This document shows positions 4,176-44,562 of a stretch of 64,000 nt of DNA, piece after piece; position 1 is the first letter of the stretch, and each line of letters starts with the position of its first letter. The position numbers and the translations under genes are program-made. Source of the DNA: Bacillota bacterium (GTDB taxonomy: Bacteria; Vulcanimicrobiota; JAJTBE01); NCBI GenBank assembly GCA_021287065.1, contig JAJTBE010000030.1:106-64105 (forward strand). Reading direction: 5' to 3'. The notes under the pieces are model-generated. The model saw nothing but the letters and a program-made list of their open reading frames with translations. It had not been told where the DNA came from and ran no database searches.

Positions 4176-6017
4176 TTGTCTATGAACCATTCCGACATAA
4201 ACCCGGTTCCCGGGCAGATTCTGAATGGACGCTATGAAGTTCTTGAAAAGCTGCATGCCGGAGCAATGGGAGTCGTTTACCGGGCGAAGGACCAGCGATT
4301 AAATAAGATTTTTGCTCTCAAGTCCATGATTACTCCCGATGCTGAAGCTGATAGGAGCAGGGCGGGGGAGTGGTTTGAACGGGAAGCAAACATCCTGTGC
4401 AATTTAAGACATCCCGGAATTCCTGTTGTTACCGACTTTTTTGAAGAACTCCGCAGGCTTTGGCTTGTGATGGATTTTATAGATGGAATAAATCTTGGAT
4501 CCATGCCTCTTCCGGTCAGTGAAGCGGAAGCGGTAAAAGTAGCTCTTCTGGCTCTCGATATTCTGAAATACATACATAAAAAGGGTATAATTCACCGGGA
4601 TATAAAAACAGAACACTTCATTCTTGAAAACAGCTCAAACCGTTATTTTCTTGTGGATTTCGGAACCGCCCGATTCGCAAAACCTGCCGCCGTAAAAACC
4701 GCCATCGGAACCCACGGCTTCGCTTCCCCTGAGCATTACGAAGGCAAAGCTGATGCAGTTTCCGATATTTATTCCCTCGGTGCCGTTCTTCACCATATCC
4801 TTACCGCAAAAGACCCCAGAAACGGAATTCCTTTTGAATTTGAGCCTATTGAAAAAGCTGCTCCCGGTGTGTCTCAGAAAATGGCGTTTGTTGTTGATAA
4901 AGCACTTTCTTATTATCCCAAGGACAGATTTCAGAATGCGGAAGAAATGGAAAAAATTCTGAATGAATATACCACCGCCGACAGCAATTCCAAATCCGGC
5001 AAAACGGAATCTTCACAGGCACACAATACAAAAATTATGCCCCATTCCCCTGCAAAAGCAAGATCAGGAAGCACTCCCTCCGTTTTTTTATCCCCGGAAC
5101 CTGTTGAAATTCCTAAGATAACAGGCAGATTCAACCTCCGACATGCCGGACTTGTCAAAAAGGCACTTTTTATATCAGATGTAACAATCGCAGTTGTTTT
5201 CTATGATGGAACAGTTGTTTTCAGAAACTCAGCCGACGGCAAAGACGAAGGTTCTCTCACCAATATCGGTGCTTTTGCAGCAAACTGCTGCGATGCTGCG
5301 GTTTCCCCTGATTACGAAACCCTTGCCCTTGCTATGGATGATAAGAGAATTTTTCTGTGGAACCTGAATACCCGGAGAAGAACAGCAACCCTGTCGGAAC
5401 ATACAAGAGTGTTATCCTGTGTCCGGTTTGGCACAAAAGGAAAAATCATCTCAGGAGATTCCGGAGGGAATATCTGCATATGGAATACTTCGCCGGTTCG
5501 GTTCAAAGGTTCCGCAAATATGGGAAATTCTGCCTGCACAGCCCTCGCCTTTGGGGAAAATGATAAAATTTTCTTCTGTGGAAATGACCAGGGTTTCATC
5601 TTCAACGGAAATACAATTTTCCTTGAAAACGAAGATGCGGAATTTAAAAGCAGGCAGATTCATAACGGCTCAATAATATCGATTTTTCATTCCGGAGCCG
5701 ATGATAAGTTAATTACCACAGGAGTTGACGGATTTATCAGAATTCACAAAATCGAATCAGGCTCCCGCCTGCAGCTTCAGAATATATCAGAATTGAATTT
5801 TAACGGAAGACCGGTGAAATCAACTGCCTTCAATAATCAGAAAAACCTGATCGCCGCTGGGTTTGAAGACGGGGGAACCGCCATAATCAACTTCTCCGGA
5901 CTGAATATAACCGTAGAAACGAAAGAACATACAAAACCTGTGGAAAGCGTGGATATATCCCCAAATGGAAAAATAATCTGCACCGCAGACGAAGATGAGA
6001 TTATTTTGTGGGGATAG
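4176..6017 (+). CDS. Ser/Thr protein kinase fused to a C-terminal WD40-like beta-propeller
   Basis: Kinase subdomains GAMGVVYRAKD, ALKSM, HRDIKTEHFIL, DFGTA and ASPEH are present. The usual KPxN is KTEH (the Mg-binding Asn is replaced by His). The C-terminal half has repeated WD-like blades (ICIWN, IILWG). Confidence 0.85.
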   Translation: MSMNHSDINPVPGQILNGRYEVLEKLHAGAMGVVYRAKDQRLNKIFALKSMITPDAEADRSRAGEWFEREANILCNLRHPGIPVVTDFFEELRRLWLVMDFIDGINLGSMPLPVSEAEAVKVALLALDILKYIHKKGIIHRDIKTEHFILENSSNRYFLVDFGTARFAKPAAVKTAIGTHGFASPEHYEGKADAVSDIYSLGAVLHHILTAKDPRNGIPFEFEPIEKAAPGVSQKMAFVVDKALSYYPKDRFQNAEEMEKILNEYTTADSNSKSGKTESSQAHNTKIMPHSPAKARSGSTPSVFLSPEPVEIPKITGRFNLRHAGLVKKALFISDVTIAVVFYDGTVVFRNSADGKDEGSLTNIGAFAANCCDAAVSPDYETLALAMDDKRIFLWNLNTRRRTATLSEHTRVLSCVRFGTKGKIISGDSGGNICIWNTSPVRFKGSANMGNSACTALAFGENDKIFFCGNDQGFIFNGNTIFLENEDAEFKSRQIHNGSIISIFHSGADDKLITTGVDGFIRIHKIESGSRLQLQNISELNFNGRPVKSTAFNNQKNLIAAGFEDGGTAIINFSGLNITVETKEHTKPVESVDISPNGKIICTADEDEIILWG

Positions 6018-10173: not shown

Positions 10174-11274
10174 ATGAGCGGAAATCCAAAAGGCGGAAAA
10201 TCGCAGCCTATCATAATTAAAAAAGTAAAAAAAGGAGGCCACGGCGGACACCACGGCGGAGCCTGGAAAGTTGCCTATGCCGACTTTGTTACTGCTATGA
10301 TGGCTCTTTTTATTGTCTTATGGATTGTTGGTCAGAGTGAAAAAGTAAAAGTTGCCATTTCTATGTATTTTAAGGATCCTGAAAAGTTTGAGGAAAAAGT
10401 AAAAGACGGAACCATAGTTCTGCCTGTTTCAACCGGAACCCCCAGTCCCATGCCTTCAGGCAACCTTATGCTGATGAAGACTGAAAAGGACGACACAGAA
10501 CAACTGAAAAAAGAAGCTGAAAATCTCGAAAAAATGGTAACCAGCGATCCTGATCTTAAAAAGTTCAAAGACCAGATTGAAATTAAGATCACTGATGAAG
10601 GCCTTCGTATTGAGCTTTTCGAAAAATCTTCCGGTAACGGAGTCTATTTCGATCTGAGCAGCGCAAAACTTAAACCCGAAGCGGAAAAACTCCTCAACAA
10701 ACTCGCCGGCGAATTAAAGAAACTCCCCAATGATATTTCCGTGGAAGGACACACAGACGCCCGGCAGTTTATTACACAAACCTACACAAACTGGGAATTG
10801 AGTGCAGACAGGGCAAATGCAGCAAGAAGAATCCTCCTGAACGGCGGAATTGCCAAAAAGCAGTTAAGCGAAATCAGGGGATATGCCGACCAGAAACTTA
10901 GAAATCCGGACAGTCCCAATGATTTTTCAAACAGACGCGTCAGTATTCTTCTTAAAAAGAGAATAGTAAAAGAAGATAAACCCGATGACAAACAGGAAAA
11001 GAAGCCTGAAGGTTCAGCTTCTCCTGCTGCTTCAGGCGCACCTGCCGAAGCCCCCGCCGCTCCTGCCGGTGAACATGGCGGAGCACCCGCAGAAGCTCCC
11101 GCTGGTGGACATGGCGAAGCTCCTGCTGCACCTGCAGGCGGACATGGCGAAGCACCCGCTGCACCCGCAGGCGGGCATGGCGAAGCTCCGGCGGCACCCG
11201 CAGGAGAAATGCCTCCACCACCGCCTCCTGAAGCTCCTGCTGCTCCCGCAGCTCCACCTGCCGGAGGGCACTGA
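10174..11274 (+). CDS. motB: Flagellar motor protein MotB (OmpA-like) with a C-terminal GGHGEAPAAPAG tandem-repeat tail
   Basis: GGHGGHHGGAWKVAYADFVTAMMALFIVLW TM/plug region. OmpA-like domain VEGHTDARQF...NWELSADRANAARR. Three and a half 36-bp repeats at 11040-11220. Confidence 0.9.
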   Translation: MSGNPKGGKSQPIIIKKVKKGGHGGHHGGAWKVAYADFVTAMMALFIVLWIVGQSEKVKVAISMYFKDPEKFEEKVKDGTIVLPVSTGTPSPMPSGNLMLMKTEKDDTEQLKKEAENLEKMVTSDPDLKKFKDQIEIKITDEGLRIELFEKSSGNGVYFDLSSAKLKPEAEKLLNKLAGELKKLPNDISVEGHTDARQFITQTYTNWELSADRANAARRILLNGGIAKKQLSEIRGYADQKLRNPDSPNDFSNRRVSILLKKRIVKEDKPDDKQEKKPEGSASPAASGAPAEAPAAPAGEHGGAPAEAPAGGHGEAPAAPAGGHGEAPAAPAGGHGEAPAAPAGEMPPPPPPEAPAAPAAPPAGGH

Positions 11275-11332
11275 TTCTTTTGGGGGGGCGTTCACAGGTG
11301 GCAAGTTTATAATTAAATAGAGGGGATTTACT

Positions 11333-12304
11333 ATGGTTTACCTTTGTGGAATTTTCAGCCGGCTGCGGAAGAATCCGCTTTCAGGCTTTTCACTTATTTT
11401 TGCTCTGGCTTTCCTCGCCACAGTCTTATTTTTGCCTTCGCCTGCTTTGGCACAACAGGCAAAAATCCGCATTGCAGTTATCGAATTTGAACAGGGCAGA
11501 TACCATTTTGACTCTGATAAAATGACCTACAGGGTTGAATCAAGCCTTATCCGGGATGGTGGTTTTGATGTTGTTTCCGGCAAAAAGGTTAAAGAAGCAG
11601 CATCGGAGCTGAAGCTCCCCGATTCAGGTTTTATGAATCAGGAAGATGCTGTGAAAATCGGTCAGAAAGTCGGTGCCGATCTTGTTGTTATGGGAGAAGT
11701 AACCGAATTCAATGTTGACAGATCTTCATTCAGCCCCGGAGTATCCATAGGCAGGGTGAGAGTGGGACGGGTCTATTCCGTTACTGTAAAACTGGTTCTC
11801 ACATCAAAAATGATTGCTGTTCATACAGGCCAGCAGGTTTTTTCAGAAAGTTTCGAAGGCAACAGCCACAGGGAATCACCTGATGTCGGCTACAGCTATG
11901 TAAATATATCCCTTGACGACCCTGATCCCGACTCAATGGCGCAGAAAGTCCAGAAAGAGGCAATGGACAAACTTACAGCCAAAATCAAACAGTCTGCAAC
12001 CGGAGTAAAAACTGCAGGTCCTGCAAAACCGGATTCCGCATCATTAAACGGTTATCTTCTTGCAGTGGAAAAAGAGCAGATTATTACTGATTTGGGAAAA
12101 GAGAGCAAAGTCACCCCCGGTATGTCTTTTTCAGTTTACGAACTCAAATCCTGGACCCACCCACAGACTGGCAAAAAAGTTACAGAAAAAATGAAAGTGG
12201 CAAAAATCAGGATAGTAAGAGTCAATGAAAACACTTCCGTAGCAGAACTGACCGAAGGAGCTCCCTCCGATATAAAAGCAGGCTTGCTGATAGTTCAGGA
12301 ATAA
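11333..12304 (+). CDS. Secreted protein with a CsgG/LpoB-like N-terminal domain (possibly flagellum-associated)
   Basis: Signal peptide ending ALAQQ. The segment RIAVIEFEQ...GADLVVMGEVTEF resembles the CsgG/LpoB/TolB-N fold signature. Sits directly downstream of motAB. Confidence 0.55.
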   Translation: MVYLCGIFSRLRKNPLSGFSLIFALAFLATVLFLPSPALAQQAKIRIAVIEFEQGRYHFDSDKMTYRVESSLIRDGGFDVVSGKKVKEAASELKLPDSGFMNQEDAVKIGQKVGADLVVMGEVTEFNVDRSSFSPGVSIGRVRVGRVYSVTVKLVLTSKMIAVHTGQQVFSESFEGNSHRESPDVGYSYVNISLDDPDPDSMAQKVQKEAMDKLTAKIKQSATGVKTAGPAKPDSASLNGYLLAVEKEQIITDLGKESKVTPGMSFSVYELKSWTHPQTGKKVTEKMKVAKIRIVRVNENTSVAELTEGAPSDIKAGLLIVQE

Positions 12305-13638: not shown

Positions 13639-14571
13639 GTGCAGCCCTTTACAGATAAACATAAAATCAGAGCATATACCATTTTGCGGTATGGAAACAC
13701 AGCATTGACGCAGCGGGCAGACCGGTCCGGCGGGTTTGGCGGATACTGTGTCAGAATGGTATTAGCAGCTTCTTACGGAGGTTGTGTCAAGGTGGAAAAA
13801 ATTACCGAAATTGAATTGCATAATTCCCCCCTTTATGAACTGACAGAGTCGGCAGATAAATACTGCCTTCTGAAAATTACATCTTCACAGCTCAGGGAAG
13901 TTCTGAAAGCCACAAAAAATAAGATTAGTGATTTTGCTGATGAAACCAGAGTTATCATATTTGATGAAAACAAACTCGACGAATTTGAAAATATATATGC
14001 CGGAATAATAGCTGTAATAGAAAATATGCTCAATTTTATCAACAGACCCGGTGCTGAAGAGAAAATTGCGTCTGCTGCCGTGCAGCTCAAAGCATTGAAT
14101 CGTGAACTTATACTTTTTAAAAGATGGTTGATTGCGGAATGCAGGGTAGATGATGCGGAGCAATTGAGGGAAATGCTTCTCGACAGGATAACGGATGAGG
14201 ATGTTATCACCGATAAATATATTGAAGTGGAAAGCATGACAAATGCTGTTCTTGAAGAGAAAATACTCACGGATGAATTTGAGGAATTTATCGATTATAA
14301 AAGGGATGAGATAACAAAAGCCCTTGATGGTTATGATGATTTCTACCTGTCAAAAGACGAATGGACTATGGAAACTGCTCTCGGAGACAAACTTCTCCGG
14401 GAGGGAGCCGGAGAATATCTGGATTCCCTTGAAATGCTCAGGGAATCATGTGTTGCCGGCGATCAGGATTATGCTGAAATTGCCCTCGACAATCTTTTTG
14501 AAGCAAATGTAAAGCTCGTAACCGTGCAGAAATTAGCAGATTATGTCAAAGAACAGGCTGCAATATCATGA
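13639..14571 (+). CDS. Hypothetical acidic alpha-helical protein (start uncertain)
   Basis: 310-aa ORF with no recognisable motifs. Flanked by MITE copies and a long non-coding leader. Confidence 0.4.
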   Translation: MQPFTDKHKIRAYTILRYGNTALTQRADRSGGFGGYCVRMVLAASYGGCVKVEKITEIELHNSPLYELTESADKYCLLKITSSQLREVLKATKNKISDFADETRVIIFDENKLDEFENIYAGIIAVIENMLNFINRPGAEEKIASAAVQLKALNRELILFKRWLIAECRVDDAEQLREMLLDRITDEDVITDKYIEVESMTNAVLEEKILTDEFEEFIDYKRDEITKALDGYDDFYLSKDEWTMETALGDKLLREGAGEYLDSLEMLRESCVAGDQDYAEIALDNLFEANVKLVTVQKLADYVKEQAAIS

Positions 14572-14897: not shown

Positions 14898-17800
14898 TTG
14901 GAGGATTGTATGGATTCCGTAACCAACAGAAATATAAACCAGGTGCAGTCGGCTAAGCCGCAGAACCTTCAGCAGGCACAGAGTAAACCTGCTGTCGTAC
15001 AATCAAAACCGGCTCAGGAAACAAAACAACAGGAGTTCGGCAAGGTCGGAGATCTACAGAATCAACCCCCGGGAGAGGCTAATCCCAAAAAAGCTCTCGC
15101 AGCTACAGGAGCACAGTCAAACTCTGCAAAACAGATTTCAGGCTCCACACAGGAGAATAAGCAGAATCAGCAGGCTCAGCAGAAACAACAGCCTTACAAT
15201 CCGCAAAGAGATACAACGGAACTTTACAGATCCATGCATGGCGGGCTTACCGGCATGGGCACAGATGAAAAAGCACTTTTCAAAGCCCTCGACGGCAAAA
15301 ACCCCGAACAGCTCAACCAACTCAGACAGACTTACAAAGATCACTACAAAAGAGACCTCGACGCAGATATTCGCAGTGAACTCTCCGGCGATGATCTCAA
15401 GAGAGCCGAATCCCTTCTCGGTGGCAATCAGGATAAAGCTGACGCAAATTCCCTCCGCAGTGCCATGTCAGGAGCCGGCACCGATGAACAGGCAATTTTC
15501 AGCAAACTTCAGGGCAAGAGTAAAGAACAGATTGATGCTATAAAAACCCAATACAGGGAAACCTACGGCAAGAGCCTTGATGATGATCTCAAAGGAGACC
15601 TTTCCGGCGATGATCTGAAAAAAGCTCAGGCTCTGCTTTCCGGTGACAACAATAAAGCTGATGCGGCAACTCTCCATAATGCAATGTCCGGAATGGGAAC
15701 CGATGAAGCTTCCATCTATAAAACCCTCGAAGGCAAAGACGCCAAAACAAGAGCAGCTATTCAGGACGCTTACAAGCAGGAATACGGAAGAGATCTCAAT
15801 GCTGATTTTAAAGGCGAAATGAAAGGCGCAGAACTTGACCGCGCCAACGCACTTATGGAAGGCAACGGGGCAAAGGCAGACGCCGCTAAGATGCGTGACG
15901 CCATGTCCGGCATGGGAACAGACGAAAATGCCATCTGGCAGTCCCTCGAAGGCAAGAGTGCGGAAGAACGCAAAGCCATTGCCGATGAGTATAAGAAAAC
16001 CTACGGCAGGGAACTCAGAGACGATTTTAAAAATGAAATGAGCGGAAACGACCTGAAACGCTCGGAAACCCTTCTTGATAAAGGCAAACTCTCTGATGCC
16101 GAAAAACTCCGCTATGCAATGGCAGGAGCAGGTACTGATGAAGATACTATCAGAGATGTCCTCAAAGGCAGAAGCAAAGAGGAAATTGCACAGATTAAAT
16201 CAGATTATCAACAGCAGTTCGGAAGAGATCTCACAAACGATCTCAAAGGCGACCTCTCAGGCAGGGATGAATTTGATGCAATGCAGGATCTAAAGGGTAA
16301 ACCTCAGTCCGCGGAAGAAGCACTGCAGAGAATGAACGAAACAAGGGATTATGAAAGAAAAGGCGTTTTAAACCATGTAAGCCGCAACTTTGTAGATACA
16401 TTCTCCGATAAAGGACAGCTCCTCGATGATAATACAAAGAGAGCTAACGAATTCTATAAAGGTGCCATGCAGGACGGCAAACTCGATGAAGGCGAGAAAA
16501 AGAGACTTTCCGAACTTACAGGATATGTTAATGACGATGTGCAGACCTACAGGGAAGCCAAAGACAGCGCTGCTGAAACTGCCGGAACAGTAGCTGCAAC
16601 AGCCGCTTCAGTGGCGGTGGTTGTAGGAACCGCAGGAACAGCAACTCCCGCAGTGGTAGCCCTCGGAGCCGCTGCCACAGCAGGAGCCGGAGCAAGAGTT
16701 ATGACCAAAGCGGCAATCGGCGGCAAAGGCTACGGCTGGGAAGAAGGAGCCATCGATATGGGCATAGGTGCCGTTGACGGAGCTTCAACCGTAGTCGGCG
16801 GAAAAGCAGGCACAATGGCTGCAAGGGCGACCCTCGAAGCTACAGCGGAAAGCACACTGAGAAAAGCCGGCGCTGATACCACTTCACGGCTGGTAACCAT
16901 GGCTTCAGGAGATATTCTTGAAAGAAACGCTGCAAAACGCGTAATGATCGGAGCCGTTGAAGGCGCTGTTGACGGCAGCGCAGGCGGCGGTATGTCAGGA
17001 GCCGGTGCTTCAGTTATCAGAGATGGAACCTGGGACCACGGTTTTGGCGAAGGCTTGAAACGAGTCGGCACTGAAACAGCGATGGGTGTGGGCGTCGGAG
17101 CTGCAGCAGGCGGTGTAATATCCGGCGGAATGTCTGCAAGAGCAGGCGGAGGCTCCCATCTGGTTGATGACTCCAAAGTCTGGATCACTAACAACCATGA
17201 AAACAACTTCGGCAGAAACTATGGACATATGGAAGATATGATCGAGGTCAATAAAGCCCTTGAACCTAATCCTCCGTCTTTCAAATATAAAATTTCCACA
17301 GGCGAAGAAGTTGATCTGAAAATTTATGGGTCAACCAACAAACAGCAAATTGAAAATATCCATCAGTCAGTTAATGACCTTGCGGCAAAAGGTGGAGACA
17401 GAGCTATACTGAACCTTAGGGAAATACACATAAGAAACAAAGTAGGCCAGTTTACCAACGAAGCCGGAGTTCCAATACCCCATTCGGAAGTAGGCGGTTT
17501 AGGCGGAAGTAATTATGGGGAAATGGTAATACAGGCGGAATCTGCTTCCACAAGAAGCGGAGCAGATCATGTCGTTCATCATGAAGTTGGACACAATATA
17601 GATGCAAATATGGGAATTGGACACCACTGGGTTTCTGATGCAGTTGATACGCCATTCGGCAAAGGTGCTTCCGTATCAGCCTACGGTTCGAAAAATGCCG
17701 CTGAAGATTTTGCGGAAACCCATAGAGAGCTGATTTCCAACTGGGATAAAATTCAGGCGGATCCCGATAGATACCTCCATTACAATGGCGATGTCGGAAA

Positions 17801-18290
17801 CAAATACAAATGGATGCTCGAAAATGTTTATGAGAAGGAAATCAAACCTCCCACACCACCTCAGGAATATGCAAGACGGGTTTTTGCAGAAAACAACCCT
17901 GCAGGAGCAGCCGGCGGAACTAACAGTATGTTTGGCGGAATGGGCGGCATGACCGGTGGCGGTGGAATGGGCGGCGGAATGCTCGGCGGCATTAACAGCA
18001 TGCCTCCTGAAAAAATCGCAGAATTCCTGAGAACTCCGGAGGGGAATAAGATGCTTACGAACTTCTCACCTCTGCTTAAAGATGCCGGACCTGAACAGCT
18101 TGAACAGGCTATCGAACAGCTTTCCAGAAATCCCGGTATGCTCGGCGGAGCCGGAGCCTTCGGAGGCGGTATGACCGGTGGCGGTATGATGGGCGGTTTC
18201 GGCGGAGCGGGAAATTCCGGCGGAAGCATGGGCGGCGGAATGCTTGGCGGCCCTCCCAATATGGGCTTCAAACCTCTGAGACCCCAGTAA
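14898..18290 (+). CDS. Giant multidomain protein: Q-rich N-terminus, at least five annexin repeats, a Gly/Ala-rich hydrophobic segment, an MtfA/anthrax-LF-like gluzincin domain (HEVGH...EDFAETH) and a Gly/Met-rich tail
   Basis: Five copies of the annexin endonexin-fold signature with the helix-turn pattern (GMGTDEKALFKAL, GAGTDEQAIFSKL, GMGTDEASIYKTL, GMGTDENAIWQSL, GAGTDEDTIRDVL), each followed by ...Y...YG..L..D(L/F)K.(D/E)(L/M)SG.... The HHEVGHNID sequence at 17577-17594 and the downstream YGSKNAAEDFAETH resemble the M90/MtfA-like zincin HExxH...E arrangement. The tail is GGMGGMTGGGGMGGGMLGG. Confidence 0.85.
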   Translation: MEDCMDSVTNRNINQVQSAKPQNLQQAQSKPAVVQSKPAQETKQQEFGKVGDLQNQPPGEANPKKALAATGAQSNSAKQISGSTQENKQNQQAQQKQQPYNPQRDTTELYRSMHGGLTGMGTDEKALFKALDGKNPEQLNQLRQTYKDHYKRDLDADIRSELSGDDLKRAESLLGGNQDKADANSLRSAMSGAGTDEQAIFSKLQGKSKEQIDAIKTQYRETYGKSLDDDLKGDLSGDDLKKAQALLSGDNNKADAATLHNAMSGMGTDEASIYKTLEGKDAKTRAAIQDAYKQEYGRDLNADFKGEMKGAELDRANALMEGNGAKADAAKMRDAMSGMGTDENAIWQSLEGKSAEERKAIADEYKKTYGRELRDDFKNEMSGNDLKRSETLLDKGKLSDAEKLRYAMAGAGTDEDTIRDVLKGRSKEEIAQIKSDYQQQFGRDLTNDLKGDLSGRDEFDAMQDLKGKPQSAEEALQRMNETRDYERKGVLNHVSRNFVDTFSDKGQLLDDNTKRANEFYKGAMQDGKLDEGEKKRLSELTGYVNDDVQTYREAKDSAAETAGTVAATAASVAVVVGTAGTATPAVVALGAAATAGAGARVMTKAAIGGKGYGWEEGAIDMGIGAVDGASTVVGGKAGTMAARATLEATAESTLRKAGADTTSRLVTMASGDILERNAAKRVMIGAVEGAVDGSAGGGMSGAGASVIRDGTWDHGFGEGLKRVGTETAMGVGVGAAAGGVISGGMSARAGGGSHLVDDSKVWITNNHENNFGRNYGHMEDMIEVNKALEPNPPSFKYKISTGEEVDLKIYGSTNKQQIENIHQSVNDLAAKGGDRAILNLREIHIRNKVGQFTNEAGVPIPHSEVGGLGGSNYGEMVIQAESASTRSGADHVVHHEVGHNIDANMGIGHHWVSDAVDTPFGKGASVSAYGSKNAAEDFAETHRELISNWDKIQADPDRYLHYNGDVGNKYKWMLENVYEKEIKPPTPPQEYARRVFAENNPAGAAGGTNSMFGGMGGMTGGGGMGGGMLGGINSMPPEKIAEFLRTPEGNKMLTNFSPLLKDAGPEQLEQAIEQLSRNPGMLGGAGAFGGGMTGGGMMGGFGGAGNSGGSMGGGMLGGPPNMGFKPLRPQ

Positions 18291-18307: not shown

Positions 18308-18342
18308 AACCGGGGGGCATAATTATAAAGCCCCCCGCCTTG
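18308..18342 (+). terminator. GC-rich hairpin (attenuator/terminator-like) between the annexin gene and the downstream small ORF
   Basis: ccggggggc-ataattataaa-gccccccgcc. It lacks a clean T-run, so it may be only a partial terminator. Confidence 0.4.
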
Positions 18343-18373: not shown

Positions 18374-18721
18374 ATGCAGATACAATCAAATACACAATCC
18401 GGTTTTCAACCGAAATACAAAGTTGATGTTTATGATAAACTTGTTGAAACTTTAACAGGGGATTCCGTAAAAATAGGAGAAGCATATTCCGACGGTACAA
18501 ATGGACAGCTCAATATACTCAACCCCCGTTTTAAGGAACAGCTTACCCAGTTGTTTACCCAGCCCCAGACAGTGATGTCTGGCGGCGGAGTTGCCGACGG
18601 CACAGCAGTGGACGGAGCGCCGCGTCAGATGGAACCCTGGAAACCTGAAACACTTCTTTACACCACAGTGTTCCAGCTCGGAAACCATAACTTCCGGGGC
18701 GAAATAAACACTATCGGATAA
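18374..18721 (+). CDS. Small hypothetical protein (115 aa) immediately downstream of the annexin/zincin gene
   Basis: Strong RBS aggagggg 7 nt upstream of the ATG. No recognisable domain. Confidence 0.55.
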   Translation: MQIQSNTQSGFQPKYKVDVYDKLVETLTGDSVKIGEAYSDGTNGQLNILNPRFKEQLTQLFTQPQTVMSGGGVADGTAVDGAPRQMEPWKPETLLYTTVFQLGNHNFRGEINTIG

Positions 18722-30187: not shown

Positions 30188-33100
30188 TTAAGCTGTCAGT
30201 TTTACTGTTTTTACCTCAAAGGGTTTGAAGGTCAGGGTTATTTTTGATTTATTATTTTCCCTGATGATTTCGATGGGATCTGACAGAGGGGTTTCCTCGC
30301 GCATGTCTGTTTCCACAGCTTCAGTAAAAACGGCAGGGATTGAGATTTCCGCTTCGCCTCTTCCGTTGAGGGATTCGTAAAGCCTGAGGACTACTGATTT
30401 GTTGTCTTCTCCCGGTTTTATGGTTTCGAGGATAATGTGGTTTTCTCTGCTTTTTACGCTGAATGACGGTATTGTCCGAAGGGTATTCGGAGGAGCGTTT
30501 TCAGGTTTTTCCTGTTTTGGCGGGAAAACCGCTGCATTGAGGTTTCTTGCTGCTGCTTCGGTTATCAGGGTGCTGTCGGGAGCTGACGACAGGCAGGGGA
30601 GGAGGGTGTACGTGAAATGGTGGAATCCCTCTTCCGCATCGGGGTCGGGGTGGACTGCGGATTTCAGCAGGGTAAGCTCAAGGGTTGAATTATGGTTTGA
30701 GCATGCATACTTACTGTCGTTGATCAGGGCGGCGCCGTATCCGTTTTCATACAGGGACGACCAGCGCAGAACCGGTGTTTCGAACATTGCCCGTTCATCA
30801 GGCTGGTTGCTGAGAGTGGATCTTTTTATGAATCCGAAGGGTATTTCCGAATAATCCTCATCGGCGTTAACATTGACAGGGAACGAAGTTTTTATCAGAA
30901 CATTCTTGTCATGCCAGTCCACAAGGGTTTCGAATTCGATAGCCGGAGTGTGGGCATAGAAATTAATATGCTGCATAATGGCGGAATTTCTGAAATTCTT
31001 AACCACCACAAGGGAGCATCTGACCGGTCCTTTTTCAACCCAGCGGGTCATTATGGTTTCCGGTTCCTCAAGGGGGAATTCCCTGTAGAATTCATCAATA
31101 TCCCATGCGTCCCAGTTGAGGGGGCGGTCTTCGAAGAATGAAAGCCTGTTGGCGGTTTCGCCTGGTTTAATAAGTTCTCTGGCAGGAGTTGTTCTTTTAT
31201 CAAGCAGCGAAACAATTTCCCCTTTTGCACTGAGAACGGCGGTGTAGAACGGAGATTCCACCACATTCACATTGGCGGCTACAGCTTCAAAAGATTCGAT
31301 TTCACCCGGTTCTTCAAATGTGAACATCTCAGATTCCAGAGGATTGAGAGCCGGGGCAAATATTTTTCCGAAGTATGTGTTTTGAACGGGATATCTTTTT
31401 CCATTTTCCGAAACCGCAATTTCAGATATGCCTGAAGCTGCGCAGGAGGCGGGCATTTCTTCGGTAAGTGCTGACAGCACATCGGTTATGCATCTTGAAG
31501 GTGTAATTTCATCCCTGATTTCAACAATGTTGTGAATGGGGAATACATGGGGGTTGAAAATCCCTGTTTTATCGGAATCAGCAGTAAACATACCGCTGAG
31601 CAGTGTTTTAATTTCACCTGTAAGGTCAGATTCCAGTTTTTCAAGCTGGTCCACAGCCTGTTCGTTAGCATCGTGGACGCAGGTTCCGGCGAGAATATCG
31701 TGGAACTGGTTAAGGAGAAGGACTTTCCAGTATTCATCCAGCCTGAACCTTGTTTCTTCGTCAAAAGTAACTGCGTTGCAGGTCATTCTGAGGCTGTATA
31801 GCTTTTCGAGGCAGTTGATAAGGTGTTCGTTTCTTCTGTTGAGCCTCTTTATATCGGAGCGGGAGGTCAGGGAGCCTCTGTGGTATTCGAGATAAAGCTC
31901 GCCTTTCCACACAGGGAGTTTAGCCCTGTTTTGTTCCAGTTTTTCAAAAACCTGCATAACTCTGCCCGTTTTCACTGCGGGCATTCCGGGGAGCTTGTCC
32001 ATTACGGGCATTCTCTCCATCATTTCCCTTACCGGTCCGCCGAGGCTGTCATCGTAACCGTAGGTGTGGAGCATTTCATCAGTGGCGTGCTTTTCTGAAA
32101 AATAGTTCCATGTTTCCTTTATTTCAAAGGGCGTGATTTTTCCGTGGAGGGCTGACCACTGGGGGCAGTCCTTATTGGGCGCTGTCTGAAACTGTGCGAG
32201 AATTTCCGATCCGTCGATTCCCTGCCATCTGAAGGCGTCTCTTGGGAATTTGGTATATGTATTCCACGACATTTTTGTAGTGGAAAAATAGTCCACTCCG
32301 CATTTTTTTGCAATCTGGGGAAGGTTTCCGTTGAAGCCGAAGGTGTCGGGAAGCCAGAGAATACGGGAGTCGTATCCGAAATATTTCTGAAAATAGCGTT
32401 TCCCGTAAATAAACTGCCTGATTAATGATTCACCTGAGGGCATATTTGCATCGGGTTCAAGCCAGGCTGCGCCTTCCGGTTCCCATCTGCCTTCCTGAGC
32501 GTATTTCCGGATTCTTGAAAACAGTTCCGGTTCCGGTTCCCTTATGAATTCGTAAAGAAGAGGCTGGCTCTGGAAATATGTGAAATCGGGATATTCTTCA
32601 AGAAGCCTGCACATCGTTGCAAAAACCTGTCTTGTTTTTCGTCCCGTAGCTTCCAGATCTCTCATCCACACTGCGTCTATGTGGCAATTTCCGGTCATTC
32701 TTATGGTGGGTCTTACTCTTTCTGCAAGTTCTTCAGGAATTTCGAATTTTTTGTCCGCTTCTTCAACAGCTTTCATAAATTCTTCGGAGCCGGGTTGTGT
32801 GAAGGGGATGGTTTTAAGTAATGAATCGGTGTATTCTATCAGTTTTCTTGTGGCAAAGTCGTCTTTGTCCAGAATATTCAGGCCGTCGGCTACAGACTGC
32901 AGTTTGTGGTGGAGTCCGAATGCGTGCAGGTTGAGTTCTCTTAACTCAAGTTTTACGATGCGTCTTTCCTGATGGCTTTTATCATAATTGACCCTGATGG
33001 TCAGTTCGTGTTCCATTTCGGTATCAAAATCAGCGGGGAGGAAAACTTCGGGATGGTTCTTATCGATTCCCTGAAAAGCTGTGCCGTTAATGTAAACCAT

Positions 33101-33445
33101 GCCTTCGGCCCCTTCAAACTCCCCGTTGGGGGTGATGTTGGCGAAACTGAAGTAGAGGGCGGTCCGGCAGTTTTTCAGTGATTCCGGTATGGAAAAGCGT
33201 CTTCTGAACCACGTGATTTTCGAATCTTCATCGAGCATGGGAATACGGCTGTCTTCCAGAACCTGCCATCCTCCGGCGGGAATCATAGGCGGTGTGAGAA
33301 TCAAGCCTGATGTTTCCTTAAACTGTATGGGCAGAAGCGATTCGGATTTGCCGTAAATAAAGCTGCCGATTTCGGCGGTTCTCTTTGTTATGCGCTGGAT
33401 GACTAAATCCAGTGAAATACTCTCATGCTGGGATCTCTGCATCAT
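30188..33445 (-). CDS. Glycoside hydrolase family 38 alpha-mannosidase
   Basis: 1085 aa. GH38 N-terminal catalytic motif TGNCHIDAVWM. Overall size and architecture typical of bacterial GH38. Confidence 0.85.
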   Translation of the reverse strand: MMQRSQHESISLDLVIQRITKRTAEIGSFIYGKSESLLPIQFKETSGLILTPPMIPAGGWQVLEDSRIPMLDEDSKITWFRRRFSIPESLKNCRTALYFSFANITPNGEFEGAEGMVYINGTAFQGIDKNHPEVFLPADFDTEMEHELTIRVNYDKSHQERRIVKLELRELNLHAFGLHHKLQSVADGLNILDKDDFATRKLIEYTDSLLKTIPFTQPGSEEFMKAVEEADKKFEIPEELAERVRPTIRMTGNCHIDAVWMRDLEATGRKTRQVFATMCRLLEEYPDFTYFQSQPLLYEFIREPEPELFSRIRKYAQEGRWEPEGAAWLEPDANMPSGESLIRQFIYGKRYFQKYFGYDSRILWLPDTFGFNGNLPQIAKKCGVDYFSTTKMSWNTYTKFPRDAFRWQGIDGSEILAQFQTAPNKDCPQWSALHGKITPFEIKETWNYFSEKHATDEMLHTYGYDDSLGGPVREMMERMPVMDKLPGMPAVKTGRVMQVFEKLEQNRAKLPVWKGELYLEYHRGSLTSRSDIKRLNRRNEHLINCLEKLYSLRMTCNAVTFDEETRFRLDEYWKVLLLNQFHDILAGTCVHDANEQAVDQLEKLESDLTGEIKTLLSGMFTADSDKTGIFNPHVFPIHNIVEIRDEITPSRCITDVLSALTEEMPASCAASGISEIAVSENGKRYPVQNTYFGKIFAPALNPLESEMFTFEEPGEIESFEAVAANVNVVESPFYTAVLSAKGEIVSLLDKRTTPARELIKPGETANRLSFFEDRPLNWDAWDIDEFYREFPLEEPETIMTRWVEKGPVRCSLVVVKNFRNSAIMQHINFYAHTPAIEFETLVDWHDKNVLIKTSFPVNVNADEDYSEIPFGFIKRSTLSNQPDERAMFETPVLRWSSLYENGYGAALINDSKYACSNHNSTLELTLLKSAVHPDPDAEEGFHHFTYTLLPCLSSAPDSTLITEAAARNLNAAVFPPKQEKPENAPPNTLRTIPSFSVKSRENHIILETIKPGEDNKSVVLRLYESLNGRGEAEISIPAVFTEAVETDMREETPLSDPIEIIRENNKSKITLTFKPFEVKTVKLTA

Positions 33446-42456: not shown

Positions 42457-44562
42457 TTAGCAGAACGCATAGAGGCTTCCGTCCGCTGTTCCTATATAGA
42501 TTTTTCCCGAAGTGCTCATTGCAGGTGATGAAATAATTTCCGATCTCAGATTGAACCACCACCGCGCCTTGCCCCAGGGGTTCAGTGCGTAAAGTATGCC
42601 GTCTCTTGATGCTGCATAGATGGTTCCTTCGTCTGAAGCCATAGGGGAGGAGAGCATAACATCATCGGTGCTGAAGCGCCATTTTTCCTGACCGTTTCTG
42701 TTTATGGCATAAAGATGCCTGTCGGTGGCGGCGATATATACTGTGCCATCTTTTCCCACAGCAGGAGATGAGCTTATTACCCCTTCTGTTTTGTATTTCC
42801 ACACAGGTTTGCCGAAGAGATTGAGGGCATATACAAATCCATCATCGCATCCGGTTATTATGTAGCCTTCTTTTGAGATAGCCGGTGTTGTTCTGATGGG
42901 CTTGGGGAGTCTGATGCTCCAGCGGATTTCCCCTGTGGGGTGGATTGCGATTATTTCTCCGTTTTTAGTGCCGAAAAGCAATGTTCCGTCATAGCACATG
43001 GAAGCGGATGTAGTTATTCCTGATTCGAATTTATTCTTCCACAGCAGGTTGCCTCTGTTGTCGATGCAATGGAGGTTTCCTGTGGAATCGCTGATGTACA
43101 CTTTCTTTTCACCAAGAAGCGGCGAATGTTTGAATGATGATTTTATCTTATAGCGCCATTTTTCCGCACCCTTTGAATCGAATGCATAAAGGCAGCCGTC
43201 TTCTGATGGAATGTATATTTTTCCGTTGATTTCCGCCGCGCCTGCAGATGCCACCGGACCTGAGGTTTCATACTGCCAGATTTGTTCTCCGGTTGGGCTG
43301 AGGGCAAAAATAAAATTGTCGTGGTTGCCGAAAAAGACATTGCCTTCTGAATCAGCGACAGGTGGAGCTGTGATTTTTCCGCCTGTGGTAAATTGCCATA
43401 AAACCGAGCCCTGTGTGTGGGCTGTAACAGGTGAAAGTCCGCTTCTCTGTGCGTTTCCCCTGAAGTGGTTCCAGACCGGATTGTCGAGCTGCAGGGAGGC
43501 GCTTGAAGGTTCTTCTTCTGTTGTTGCAACGCCGTTTGATTTTACCTGAACTTCCAGAACTTTGGTTTTTTTATGCTTCAGTGATGAAATTTCGTCTTCG
43601 ATGCTTCTGATTTCGTGCTGGAGATCCGAAAAGCGATCTTCCCTGACAATCATTGTGGCAATAGCTGCCCTAAGTTCCCTTGCGGACTGATAGCGGTCGG
43701 AAGGGTTGAGATGCAGGGCTTTTTCCACAATAATTTCGAGAGTTGCAGGCAGTTCGGGATTAAGCTTGCGAAGAGGTTCGAAATGGAACGGCGCTTCATA
43801 CTGGGGATCTTTTCCTGTGAGCAGGTGGTGGAGTGTTGCTCCCAGAGAATAGATATCCGACCGGGGTTCCGATTCGCCCCTGTATTGCTCCGGCGGAGCA
43901 TATCCCTGTGTGCCCACCATTGTTGCTTTTTCCTGAGAAATAAAAAGACGGGCTATGCCAAAGTCAACCAGTTTGACTTTTCCTTCGCCGGTGATCATTA
44001 TGTTGGATGGTTTAAGATCTCTGTAAATAATGGGTGGATTTCTGAAATGCAGATAATCAAGTACATCGCATATTTCAAGAGTCCAGCGGAGAACTCTTTC
44101 AACAGGAATCTTTTTTCCTGCTTCGGTTAATCTTCTAAGTATGCGGCGCAGATCCAGACCTTCGATATAATCCATCACAAGATAATATCTGTGGTTTTCA
44201 ACGAAATGCTCGAAGAAATGTGGCACTGCGGGATGGTTAAGTCCGCAGAGAATCTTGGCTTCCCGCTCAAAGCGTTCAATGGCATCGGTCCGTTCCCTGA
44301 TGCTGGTGAAGCGGTCTATGAGTTCTTTGATTGCCACAGGGCTTCCGTATTTTACATCGTTTCCTCTGTAAATATAGCCCATTCCGCCGACATTGATAAG
44401 TTCGTCAACTTTAAATCTGCCTGATAAAAGAAAGCCCTTGTGCAGTGTATGGAGAGTGGATGGAATAGAAGGCGAATCACCGAACTTCATATTTCTTCCG
44501 CACACAACACAAAACCGTGCCTGGCCTCTGTTTTCAGCCCCGCATTCAGGACATTCGATCAT
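42457..44562 (-). CDS. Ser/Thr protein kinase with an N-terminal zinc-ribbon and a C-terminal PQQ-like beta-propeller
   Basis: CPECG...CVVCG zinc ribbon. Canonical kinase motifs VGGMGYIY, VAIKEL, YRDLKPSNIM, DFGIA and APPE. About 8 PQQ/BamB-like repeats (G.VY....DG.LYA). Confidence 0.9.
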   Translation of the reverse strand: MIECPECGAENRGQARFCVVCGRNMKFGDSPSIPSTLHTLHKGFLLSGRFKVDELINVGGMGYIYRGNDVKYGSPVAIKELIDRFTSIRERTDAIERFEREAKILCGLNHPAVPHFFEHFVENHRYYLVMDYIEGLDLRRILRRLTEAGKKIPVERVLRWTLEICDVLDYLHFRNPPIIYRDLKPSNIMITGEGKVKLVDFGIARLFISQEKATMVGTQGYAPPEQYRGESEPRSDIYSLGATLHHLLTGKDPQYEAPFHFEPLRKLNPELPATLEIIVEKALHLNPSDRYQSARELRAAIATMIVREDRFSDLQHEIRSIEDEISSLKHKKTKVLEVQVKSNGVATTEEEPSSASLQLDNPVWNHFRGNAQRSGLSPVTAHTQGSVLWQFTTGGKITAPPVADSEGNVFFGNHDNFIFALSPTGEQIWQYETSGPVASAGAAEINGKIYIPSEDGCLYAFDSKGAEKWRYKIKSSFKHSPLLGEKKVYISDSTGNLHCIDNRGNLLWKNKFESGITTSASMCYDGTLLFGTKNGEIIAIHPTGEIRWSIRLPKPIRTTPAISKEGYIITGCDDGFVYALNLFGKPVWKYKTEGVISSSPAVGKDGTVYIAATDRHLYAINRNGQEKWRFSTDDVMLSSPMASDEGTIYAASRDGILYALNPWGKARWWFNLRSEIISSPAMSTSGKIYIGTADGSLYAFC

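Follow-up and report, generated by a model that had tools for sequence, protein, structure and literature searches.

Why should a bacterial gene join a run of annexin repeats to a zinc-metallopeptidase-like domain, and to what kind of system would such a protein belong? The question is raised by a locus in a 64,000-nt stretch of contig JAJTBE010000030.1 (positions 106 to 64,105, forward strand; assembly GCA_021287065.1, named Bacillota bacterium and placed by GTDB in the Vulcanimicrobiota), hereafter called the window, in which a long gene at 14910–18290 is followed by a small partner gene at 18374–18721. An earlier note on this DNA had described the product of the long gene as a fusion of annexin repeats with a zincin, and as a membrane-targeted, toxin-like effector or surface-remodelling protease. 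The analysis reported here indicates that the gene pair is probably a module of the polymorphic-toxin type, that is, an exported effector with a constant delivery trunk, an exchangeable enzymatic tip and a tip-specific partner protein. The membrane-targeted effector reading is favoured by the trunk, the exchange of tips and the linkage of the partner gene, with the mechanism inferred.

The reading frame was open on the forward strand from a TTG at 14898 to 18290, which amounts to 1130 codons. Direct reading of the sequence placed a GGAGG Shine-Dalgarno motif 6 nt upstream of an ATG and, because the TTG lies within this ribosome-binding site, the true start is almost certainly the ATG at 14910, giving a product of 1126 aa whose stop codon ends at 18290. 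From N- to C-terminus, this product comprises a Q-rich leader, five annexin repeats, a helical linker, a glycine-zipper module, a gluzincin domain and a GGM-rich tail (Table 1). It contains no cysteine.

Domain mapping among relatives (P numbers denote protein cluster representatives, L numbers the loci of relatives) found the succession of annexin repeats, linker, hydrophobic module and zincin also in P0006, P0008–P0012, P0015, P0042 and P0144, and partial versions of it in P0036, P0108 and P0112. Since approximately 12 independent clusters carry the architecture, full-length examples coming from independent assemblies, the concern that the uninterrupted frame might be an assembly artefact was dispelled. 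Five annexin repeats, linker and glycine-zipper module, up to approximately residue 750, are referred to below as the trunk. P0002, P0003 and the metagenomic locus L008 have the same trunk, but their C-termini are related neither to the zincin nor to each other; when the window protein was aligned with P0002, identity was 30–80% up to approximately residue 750 and at background level beyond. As judged by sequence comparison, at least four unrelated C-termini (the zincin and three others) are attached to the trunk, and the boundary, immediately behind the last zipper, is sharp. Such a combination, in which the trunk stays the same, the tips change at one set position and a downstream gene varies in step with the tip (see below), is the genomic hallmark of polymorphic toxin/immunity systems. 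The exchangeable tips, the linker with its glycine-zipper module and the tip-linked downstream gene had all been overlooked in the earlier note.

The fourth tip type, at L008 (1–1950), contains VKFDGFEE...ILLDAKT, which resembles a PD-(D/E)xK nuclease motif; the nuclease reading is unverified (no family match) and was not relied on. An open reading frame (ORF) of ~200 aa at L008 ~1950–2319 overlaps or abuts the stop codon of the trunk gene and also had no family match. A scan of 185,579 species representatives with the trunk returned one match, in the metagenome-assembled genome 'Deltaproteobacteria bacterium PRO2' (P0002), and a metagenome scan with the trunk added one short contig; the trunk family is very rare and patchily distributed. 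Neither the trunk nor the zincin tip was found in viral contigs, only an unrelated single-annexin phage protein. Word-indexed homologue searches with the zincin alone or the linker alone missed known relatives, and their negatives are consequently weak.

The partner ORF encodes 115 aa, has its own GGAGG and begins 83 nt past the stop of the putative toxin gene; its product has a pI of 5.0 (~5–8 across the partner family), and no signal peptide or transmembrane (TM) segment was predicted. Homologues lie directly downstream of zincin-tipped genes at L009 (75% identity to the window ORF), L010 (43–45%, overlapping the toxin-gene stop codon) and L012/L013 (33%), and BLASTP among all pairs of partner genes gave E values of 1e-14 to 1e-67. 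Altogether, the partner was found at 4/4 zincin-tipped trunk loci with downstream sequence and at 0/3 trunk loci with other tips. A profile built from the four partners had no match at these three other-tip loci, where the downstream genes are unrelated and had no match in Pfam, NCBIfam or PDB, and none beside three more distant, trunk-less zincin genes. The L012 toxin (P0008) differs in its leader and post-zincin module, yet has the partner downstream. Because the partner is retained where tail and leader differ, it tracks the zincin, not the tail or the leader, and we regard it as a candidate cognate immunity protein or inhibitor of the zincin tip.

Alternatively, the partner could be an export chaperone or adaptor, and the system could be aimed at eukaryotic cells (protists, fungi, animals), with the annexins recognising phosphatidylserine or phosphoinositides and the protease cutting signalling proteins. 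The partner has the small size, acidity and cytoplasmic location of many secretion chaperones, which would agree with this, as would repeats ~40% identical to those of vertebrate annexins and one family member with ankyrin repeats; moreover, lethal factor and NleD/M91 proteases, the nearest characterised zincins, act on eukaryotic kinases. However, chaperones and adaptors usually bind the constant N-terminal or hydrophobic part of their substrates, whereas this partner tracks the zincin only, and the PD-(D/E)xK-like motif of the L008 tip would suggest an interbacterial nuclease, although it is unverified. On balance, we consider a chaperone of a eukaryote-directed system rather unlikely, and retain the partner as a candidate inhibitor.

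The 83-nt spacer between the two genes contains a hairpin (GGGGGC-loop-GCCCCC) that is not followed by a T-run, and no terminator was called there; counts from a promoter and terminator scan around the gene pair were no higher than in shuffled sequence. The hairpin might set the expression ratio of the toxin and partner genes.

The annexin core matched Pfam PF00191 (Annexin) with E=3.3e-68 and 226 bits (cut-off 25) over five stretches, and its solved relatives were annexins VI, IV and V (E 4e-59 to 1e-36), with annexin VI the best. The repeats span residues 101–172, 174–245, 247–318, 320–391 and 392–463, and G-x-G-T-D-E starts at residues 115, 188, 261, 334 and 406, with a period of 73/73/73/72. 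The type II Ca2+-site signature GxGT-38-D/E was complete in 5/5 repeats, the acidic residue at +42 being E, D, E, E and D in turn. Coincidental low complexity is thus not supported, and each repeat bears the signature that had been attributed to it; textbook repeats they are, and where "at least five" had been claimed there are exactly five. Repeat identity was ~40% to vertebrate annexin VI and 29–54% among the five repeats themselves. By their sequence, the repeats have intact predicted Ca2+ sites, and Ca2+-dependent binding of acidic phospholipid is their predicted function. When bacterial annexins were earlier compared with eukaryotic ones, 'no strong similarities' were found (Kodavali et al. 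2014, PMC3894181); the strong similarity of the present repeats to animal annexins is relevant to the question of annexin origins. A virus-borne case of the annexin fold, separate from and unrelated to the trunk, was seen in the phage-like IMG/VR viral contigs L018 (9752–10231) and L019, which encode a 159-aa protein that combines a transmembrane helix at its N-terminus with just one annexin repeat (GAGTDE...DALKGDLS).

The linker that follows the annexins (KPQSAEEALQRMNE...YREAKD) was kept in all trunk-bearing relatives and was helical in the AlphaFold model, with a predicted local distance difference test (pLDDT) of 71–88. The glycine-zipper module opens with an apolar hairpin of helices, at whose turn G-T-x-G-x-x-x-P is conserved; three segments with conserved GxxxG(xxxG), in which Gly recurs at i/i+4(/i+8), and an invariant T-W-D come next. 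Alignment of 10–11 relatives revealed columns of Gly, Pro, Arg, Tyr, Asp and Trp that are invariant or nearly so along the module. It is Ala/Gly/Thr-rich and moderately hydrophobic (Kyte-Doolittle maximum 1.74), its AlphaFold model is all-helical with low confidence, and its GxxxG count of 12, against 7.4 ± 2.2 expected from composition, represents a weak enrichment only. A profile of linker plus zipper matched over its full length in the window, L010, L011, L012, L001, L005 and L008, and the region between annexins and junction is conserved rather than of low complexity. The Gly/Ala-rich hydrophobic stretch of ~50 aa noted earlier is real, but it is merely the start of this conserved module of ~200 aa.

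A central hydrophobic hairpin in a protein without a signal peptide would also suit a resident inner-membrane protein, anchored by the hairpin, in which the annexins organise anionic lipid on the cytoplasmic side, the zincin is a housekeeping or regulatory protease and the small gene encodes its regulator. The core-gene chromosomal context (IF-2, NusA, PGK, MotAB) is compatible with such a role, and one bacterial annexin was predicted by Kodavali et al. to be cytosolic with a membrane anchor. However, housekeeping proteins do not exchange catalytic domains for unrelated C-termini at a fixed junction, nor would one expect such a protein to be as rare and patchy as this family is (the single match among the species representatives). 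The Ala/Gly/Thr-rich hydrophobic segments, which peak at just the value given above, also speak against an anchor, and the partner follows the tip and not the trunk. We therefore regard a resident protein as very unlikely and continue with the toxin-type module.

The tip contains HHEVGHNID at residues 889–897, in which H891-E892-x-x-H895 (HEVGH 891–895) corresponds to nt 17580–17594, and YGSKNAAEDFAETH at residues 925–938, which includes Y925, E932 and E936 (E932-D-F-A-E936) within nt 17682–17723; the arrangement of HExxH plus distal Glu, as had been proposed, was therefore found. The window zincin alone gave no significant match to curated Pfam or NCBIfam models (best Reprolysin_4, E=0.006, below the cut-off) and no solved relative in a single-sequence PDB search. 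An exhaustive profile search assembled a family of 161 cluster representatives at E≤1e-3 (77 at E≤1e-10), and of 150 listed members, 148 have HExxH and 134 have E-D-[FYL]-A-E 33–47 residues past it. In alignments of 40 and 97 members, the H, E, H, E and A columns were invariant, and the Tyr (seven before the Glu), the Asp and the second Glu nearly so. The best match of the family profile was anthrax lethal factor (LF; E=2.2e-5), followed by two 'Mx'-type zincins (~1e-3) and MtfA (0.02). The LF alignment pairs HExxH, Tyr and E-x-F-A-E, and sets Y925/E932 on LF ...SYGRTNEAEFFAE..., at residues that we take to be the catalytic Tyr and the Glu zinc ligand of LF. Single family members matched Peptidase_Mx (best 2.4e-7), M90 (2.8e-6) and ATLF (2.1e-5), as well as Mx1 and M91 (NleD).

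The AlphaFold model of the zincin had a predicted template modelling score (pTM) of 0.66 and a core pLDDT of 70–86. With regard to the possibility that the HEVGH region adopts some other fold, the model matched gluzincins only in fold comparison, namely M1 aminopeptidase catalytic domains (score 9.1), PPEP-3 and PPEP-2 (7.0 and 6.8), lethal factor (6.5), MtfA (6.3) and thermolysin (5.9); Foldseek agreement was weak. By motif, profile and predicted fold, the window tip is a gluzincin of a family that lacks a curated model and is sister to the LF/MtfA-type (M34/M90) families. Because no curated model was reached, the M90/MtfA- and anthrax-LF-like assignment made earlier holds at the level of motif and profile (E=2.2e-5 to LF) and, more loosely, at that of fold, where M1 aminopeptidases scored highest, but not as membership of a curated family. 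The catalytic residues of the window tip are fully conserved, and the tip belongs to a real and probably active peptidase family. One zincin-family member is joined to ankyrin repeats.

Behind the zincin, the tail of the window protein (residues 1001–1126) consists of 32% Gly and 11% Met, with 7 GGM, which bears out the (GGM)n-rich ending described before; two Gly/Met-rich stretches surround a helical segment of ~50 aa, and the protein ends in a conserved GFKPLRPQ. This GGM-rich tail was conserved in P0001, and similar Gly/Met tails occurred in P0006, P0042 and P0020. It had no match in Pfam, NCBIfam or PDB and is of low complexity without an enzymatic signature. The C-terminus of GroEL is GGM-rich too, a likeness to the window tail in composition only. 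A different module stands in this place in P0007–P0011 and P0014 (e.g. L012 ~10990–11729), where ~240 aa with NPGHHDPxSPNFRGGGSMTT...GDWYRYQG...VHWNGATG and coiled-coil-like flanks are conserved. This module had no Pfam, NCBIfam or PDB match; a GHH/HNH reading is unverified and was not relied on, and the module could be a second effector domain.

The presence of a further conserved module after the zincin in those six clusters raises the prospect that the zincin is a self-processing peptidase that frees what follows it, the GGM tail here and the ~240-aa module in relatives, and, according to Zhang et al., a zincin domain within a toxin protein may serve as a releasing peptidase. Nevertheless, the zincin lies at the extreme C-terminus, with 0–10 residues after it, in P0012, P0013, P0025, P0036, P0047 and P0050, the partner gene accompanies the zincin regardless of what comes after, and the low-complexity window tail lacks an enzymatic signature. 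A releasing peptidase is thus very unlikely, and an effector tip remains our preferred reading of the zincin.

The next question is how such a protein would leave the cell. The leader is Gln/Ala/Lys/Asn-rich (23% Gln) and predicted to be disordered, and composition and hydropathy of the window protein gave no signal peptide or hydrophobic signal segment, in agreement with the Q-rich 5' end without signal peptide that had been noted. Across the trunk family, N-termini are variable, at 32–114 aa with 12–22% hydrophobic residues, and have no common motif and no Sec signal; a Sec signal was likewise lacking in 59/60 other zincin-family proteins. A Sec-less protein with a disordered N-terminus could be the cargo of a Photorhabdus virulence cassette (PVC) or other extracellular contractile injection system (eCIS) encoded elsewhere in the genome, in the manner of Haliangium Hoch_1736, with the leader as loading signal and without crossing membranes by itself. 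Published annexin plus ALF-metallopeptidase toxins were assigned to the PVC secretion system (PMC3482391), and Annexin is listed among the domains associated with eCIS operons (Geller et al. 2021, PMC8213781). However, neither the window protein nor any of the scanned family members has the defining N-terminal PVC-metallopeptidase/DUF4157, genes for sheath, tube, baseplate or AAA proteins were lacking among the scanned window ORFs (all of ≥449 aa included) and beside the relatives, the trunk was not found in viral or tail-like contigs, and a conserved hydrophobic insertion module would be needless for injected cargo. We therefore think it unlikely that the protein is eCIS cargo, and keep to an effector of the polymorphic-toxin type.

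Several points weigh against that reading as well. Export of the window protein is assumed: no eCIS or type VI secretion system (T6SS) parts (sheath, tube, baseplate, AAA, VgrG, TssM) were found among the window ORFs scanned, which included all of ≥449 aa, each of these being assigned, or in eight other neighbourhoods of relatives; the window protein lacks DUF4157, PAAR, RHS and LXG, and scans of it and of its trunk relatives for known trafficking domains (signal peptide, two-partner secretion domain (TPS), PAAR/RHS, LXG/WXG, MafB-N, DUF4157) found none. The window zincin did not reach the thresholds of Pfam ATLF (PF07737) or Peptidase_M90 (PF06167), the alternative tips (P0002, P0003, L008) had no match in Pfam, NCBIfam, PDB or any known toxin family, and the partner had none in Pfam, NCBIfam, PDB or known immunity (Imm) families. 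Few trunk loci are known, which makes the co-variation statistics small, and no orphan tip/partner cassettes were seen in the window or the relatives' loci. Finally, we infer the labels 'toxin' and 'immunity' from architecture and linkage.

If the reading is correct, cytoplasmic synthesis would yield a protein that lacks a Sec signal and whose protease is bound and blocked by the partner. It would then exit the cell via a dedicated route that uses the disordered leader, and at the target the annexin core would dock on anionic phospholipid in a Ca2+-dependent manner. The moderately hydrophobic glycine-zipper helices could subsequently insert and permeabilise the membrane or translocate the tip, and the zinc endopeptidase, once delivered, would cleave target proteins in the cytosol or close to the membrane. 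That the tip can harm bacteria is suggested by the presence of a cognate partner; animal-like annexin repeats, an LF/NleD-like protease and one ankyrin-fused relative suggest a eukaryotic target. A bolder version, which we hold to be doubtful, is that the trunk is a self-contained, Ca2+-triggered membrane-translocation device needing no injection apparatus at the target: the annexin disc would bind anionic lipid, the zipper helices would take any one of several enzymatic tips through the bilayer, and a new family of small cytoplasmic inhibitors would silence the lethal-factor-like tip in the producer. In that case, this lineage would also be the best candidate for a direct link between bacterial and eukaryotic annexins, because the closeness of the repeats to vertebrate annexins (~40%) is on a par with that among themselves, a similarity that earlier surveys did not find. 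An autonomously delivering trunk would amount to a compact, reprogrammable scaffold for protein delivery; otherwise, the protein would be one more member of the large polymorphic-toxin catalogue.

Coordinates of the features are collected in Table 1.

Table 1. Features of the gene pair and its surroundings, in positions of the window.
Feature	Position	Strand	Basis
Shine-Dalgarno GGAGG	14899..14903	+	Sequence reading
Putative toxin/effector gene, 1126 codons plus stop	14910..18290	+	Open frame; architecture recurring in ~12 independent clusters
Leader, residues 1–95	14910..15194	+	Composition
Annexin core, residues 96–463	15195..16298	+	Pfam Annexin, annexin VI match, motif spacing
Helical linker, residues 464–552	16299..16565	+	Conservation in trunk-bearing relatives; AlphaFold model
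Glycine-zipper hydrophobic module, residues 553–750	16566..17159	+	Hydropathy; conserved columns; model; junction with P0002
Gluzincin (lethal-factor/MtfA-like) metallopeptidase tip, residues 751–1000	17160..17909	+	Motif, family profile, fold
GGM-rich tail, residues 1001–1126	17910..18287	+	Composition
G+C-rich hairpin in the spacer of the gene pair	18311..18337	+	Sequence reading
Partner gene, 115 aa	18374..18721	+	Homologues directly downstream in relatives

The window is an ordinary stretch of bacterial chromosome with 42–49% G+C. MotA/MotB and an FlgT-like gene lie upstream of the toxin gene, and genes for a DUF4097 protein, a GGDEF cyclase and an M16 peptidase lie downstream of the pair; farther away are GatA, PGK, a GH38 mannosidase, two Ser/Thr kinases with propellers, NusA and IF-2. 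The kinases (4176–6017 and 42457–44562) are fused to beta-propellers (WD40; PQQ/BamB-like) and, together with the GH38 alpha-mannosidase (30188–33445), suggest a myxobacteria- or Bdellovibrio-like lifestyle. A 310-aa ORF at 13639–14571, upstream of the toxin gene, had no family match and was not counted as part of the module; its identity to the upstream genes of two relatives was 25% and 15%. At the P0003 locus (L005 8783–17578), the trunk gene lies between a gene resembling a component of the type II secretion system (T2SS-F/TadB-like) and FHA-BTAD, pseudopilin-like (N_methyl) and Ser/Thr kinase genes, a neighbourhood that may hint at a pilus-type (Tad/Kil-like) export apparatus; the pattern was absent at the other loci.

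The window repeats share with the eukaryotic annexins A4, A5 and A6 the ~73-aa repeat, the GxGTDE endonexin loop and the acidic ligand 38 residues on, with identity of ~40% and E values as low as 4e-59. Eukaryotic annexins have four or eight repeats, whereas the window protein has five, with all five Ca2+ sites intact and, unlike its eukaryotic counterparts, joined to a membrane-insertion module and an enzyme, in a bacterial chromosome and with Shine-Dalgarno sites.

For the hydrophobic module, the closest parallel is the Agrobacterium T6SS effector Tde1, which needs its glycine zipper in order to be translocated (Ali et al. 2023, PMC10240207). Both proteins have consecutive GxxxG motifs beside an enzymatic toxin domain, and work on Tde1 showed that these make the target membrane permeable and that delivery depends on them. 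The Tde1 zipper is short and N-terminal, and the effector is adaptor-loaded on the T6SS; in contrast, the window zipper is ~200 aa long and central, has no T6SS link and has a predicted role.

The architecture as a whole is not undescribed, as the earlier note had supposed, since annexin joined to a lethal-factor-like peptidase was reported in silico by Zhang et al. 2012 (PMC3482391) and Kodavali et al. 2014 (PMC3894181). The former study defined the Tox-ALF-metallopeptidase toxin tip, observed that PVC-delivered toxins may have an annexin domain and then always an enzymatic tip (example, Haliangium Hoch_1736), and proposed annexin as an accessory membrane-breaching domain N-terminal to ALF-metallopeptidase toxins. 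The latter described Hoch_1736 as DUF4157 plus annexin plus a C-terminal Peptidase_M90, and mentioned myxobacterial proteins with three and five annexins as well as an annexin-pyocin-colicin D protein. Like the window protein, Hoch_1736 of H. ochraceum (gi 262194969) has annexin N-terminal to a C-terminal anthrax-lethal-factor-like/M90-like zinc peptidase and, with related PVC/eCIS toxins, is read as a membrane-binding domain plus enzymatic tip, in 'delta-proteobacterial' lineages. Published toxins of the Hoch_1736 type have an N-terminal PVC-metallopeptidase (DUF4157) and one annexin domain (two by HHpred), whereas the window protein, compared with these by published description, has no DUF4157, five canonical repeats, a linker and zipper, a GGM tail and a downstream partner. 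The annexin-Pyocin_S-Colicin D protein of Burkholderiales bacterium JOSHI_001 (Kodavali et al. 2014) is a second example of annexin repeats that occur with a toxin tip; it resembles the window protein in its multiple annexin repeats, its predicted membrane segment and its bacteriocin-type toxin domain at the C-terminus, but differs in its tRNase tip, its pyocin translocation domain and its three recognised repeats.

Annexin-bearing bacterial toxins have thus been predicted since 2012, and apparently none has been characterised experimentally in the literature searched. What distinguishes the present locus is the combination of five eukaryote-like repeats, no DUF4157 or eCIS marker, a distinct linker and zipper trunk, a new partner family and a tip family without a curated model. 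With five predicted lipid/Ca2+ sites intact, a defined tip junction, an apparently active LF-like protease and a candidate inhibitor, it offers a tractable version of the annexin-bearing toxins proposed in these earlier surveys.

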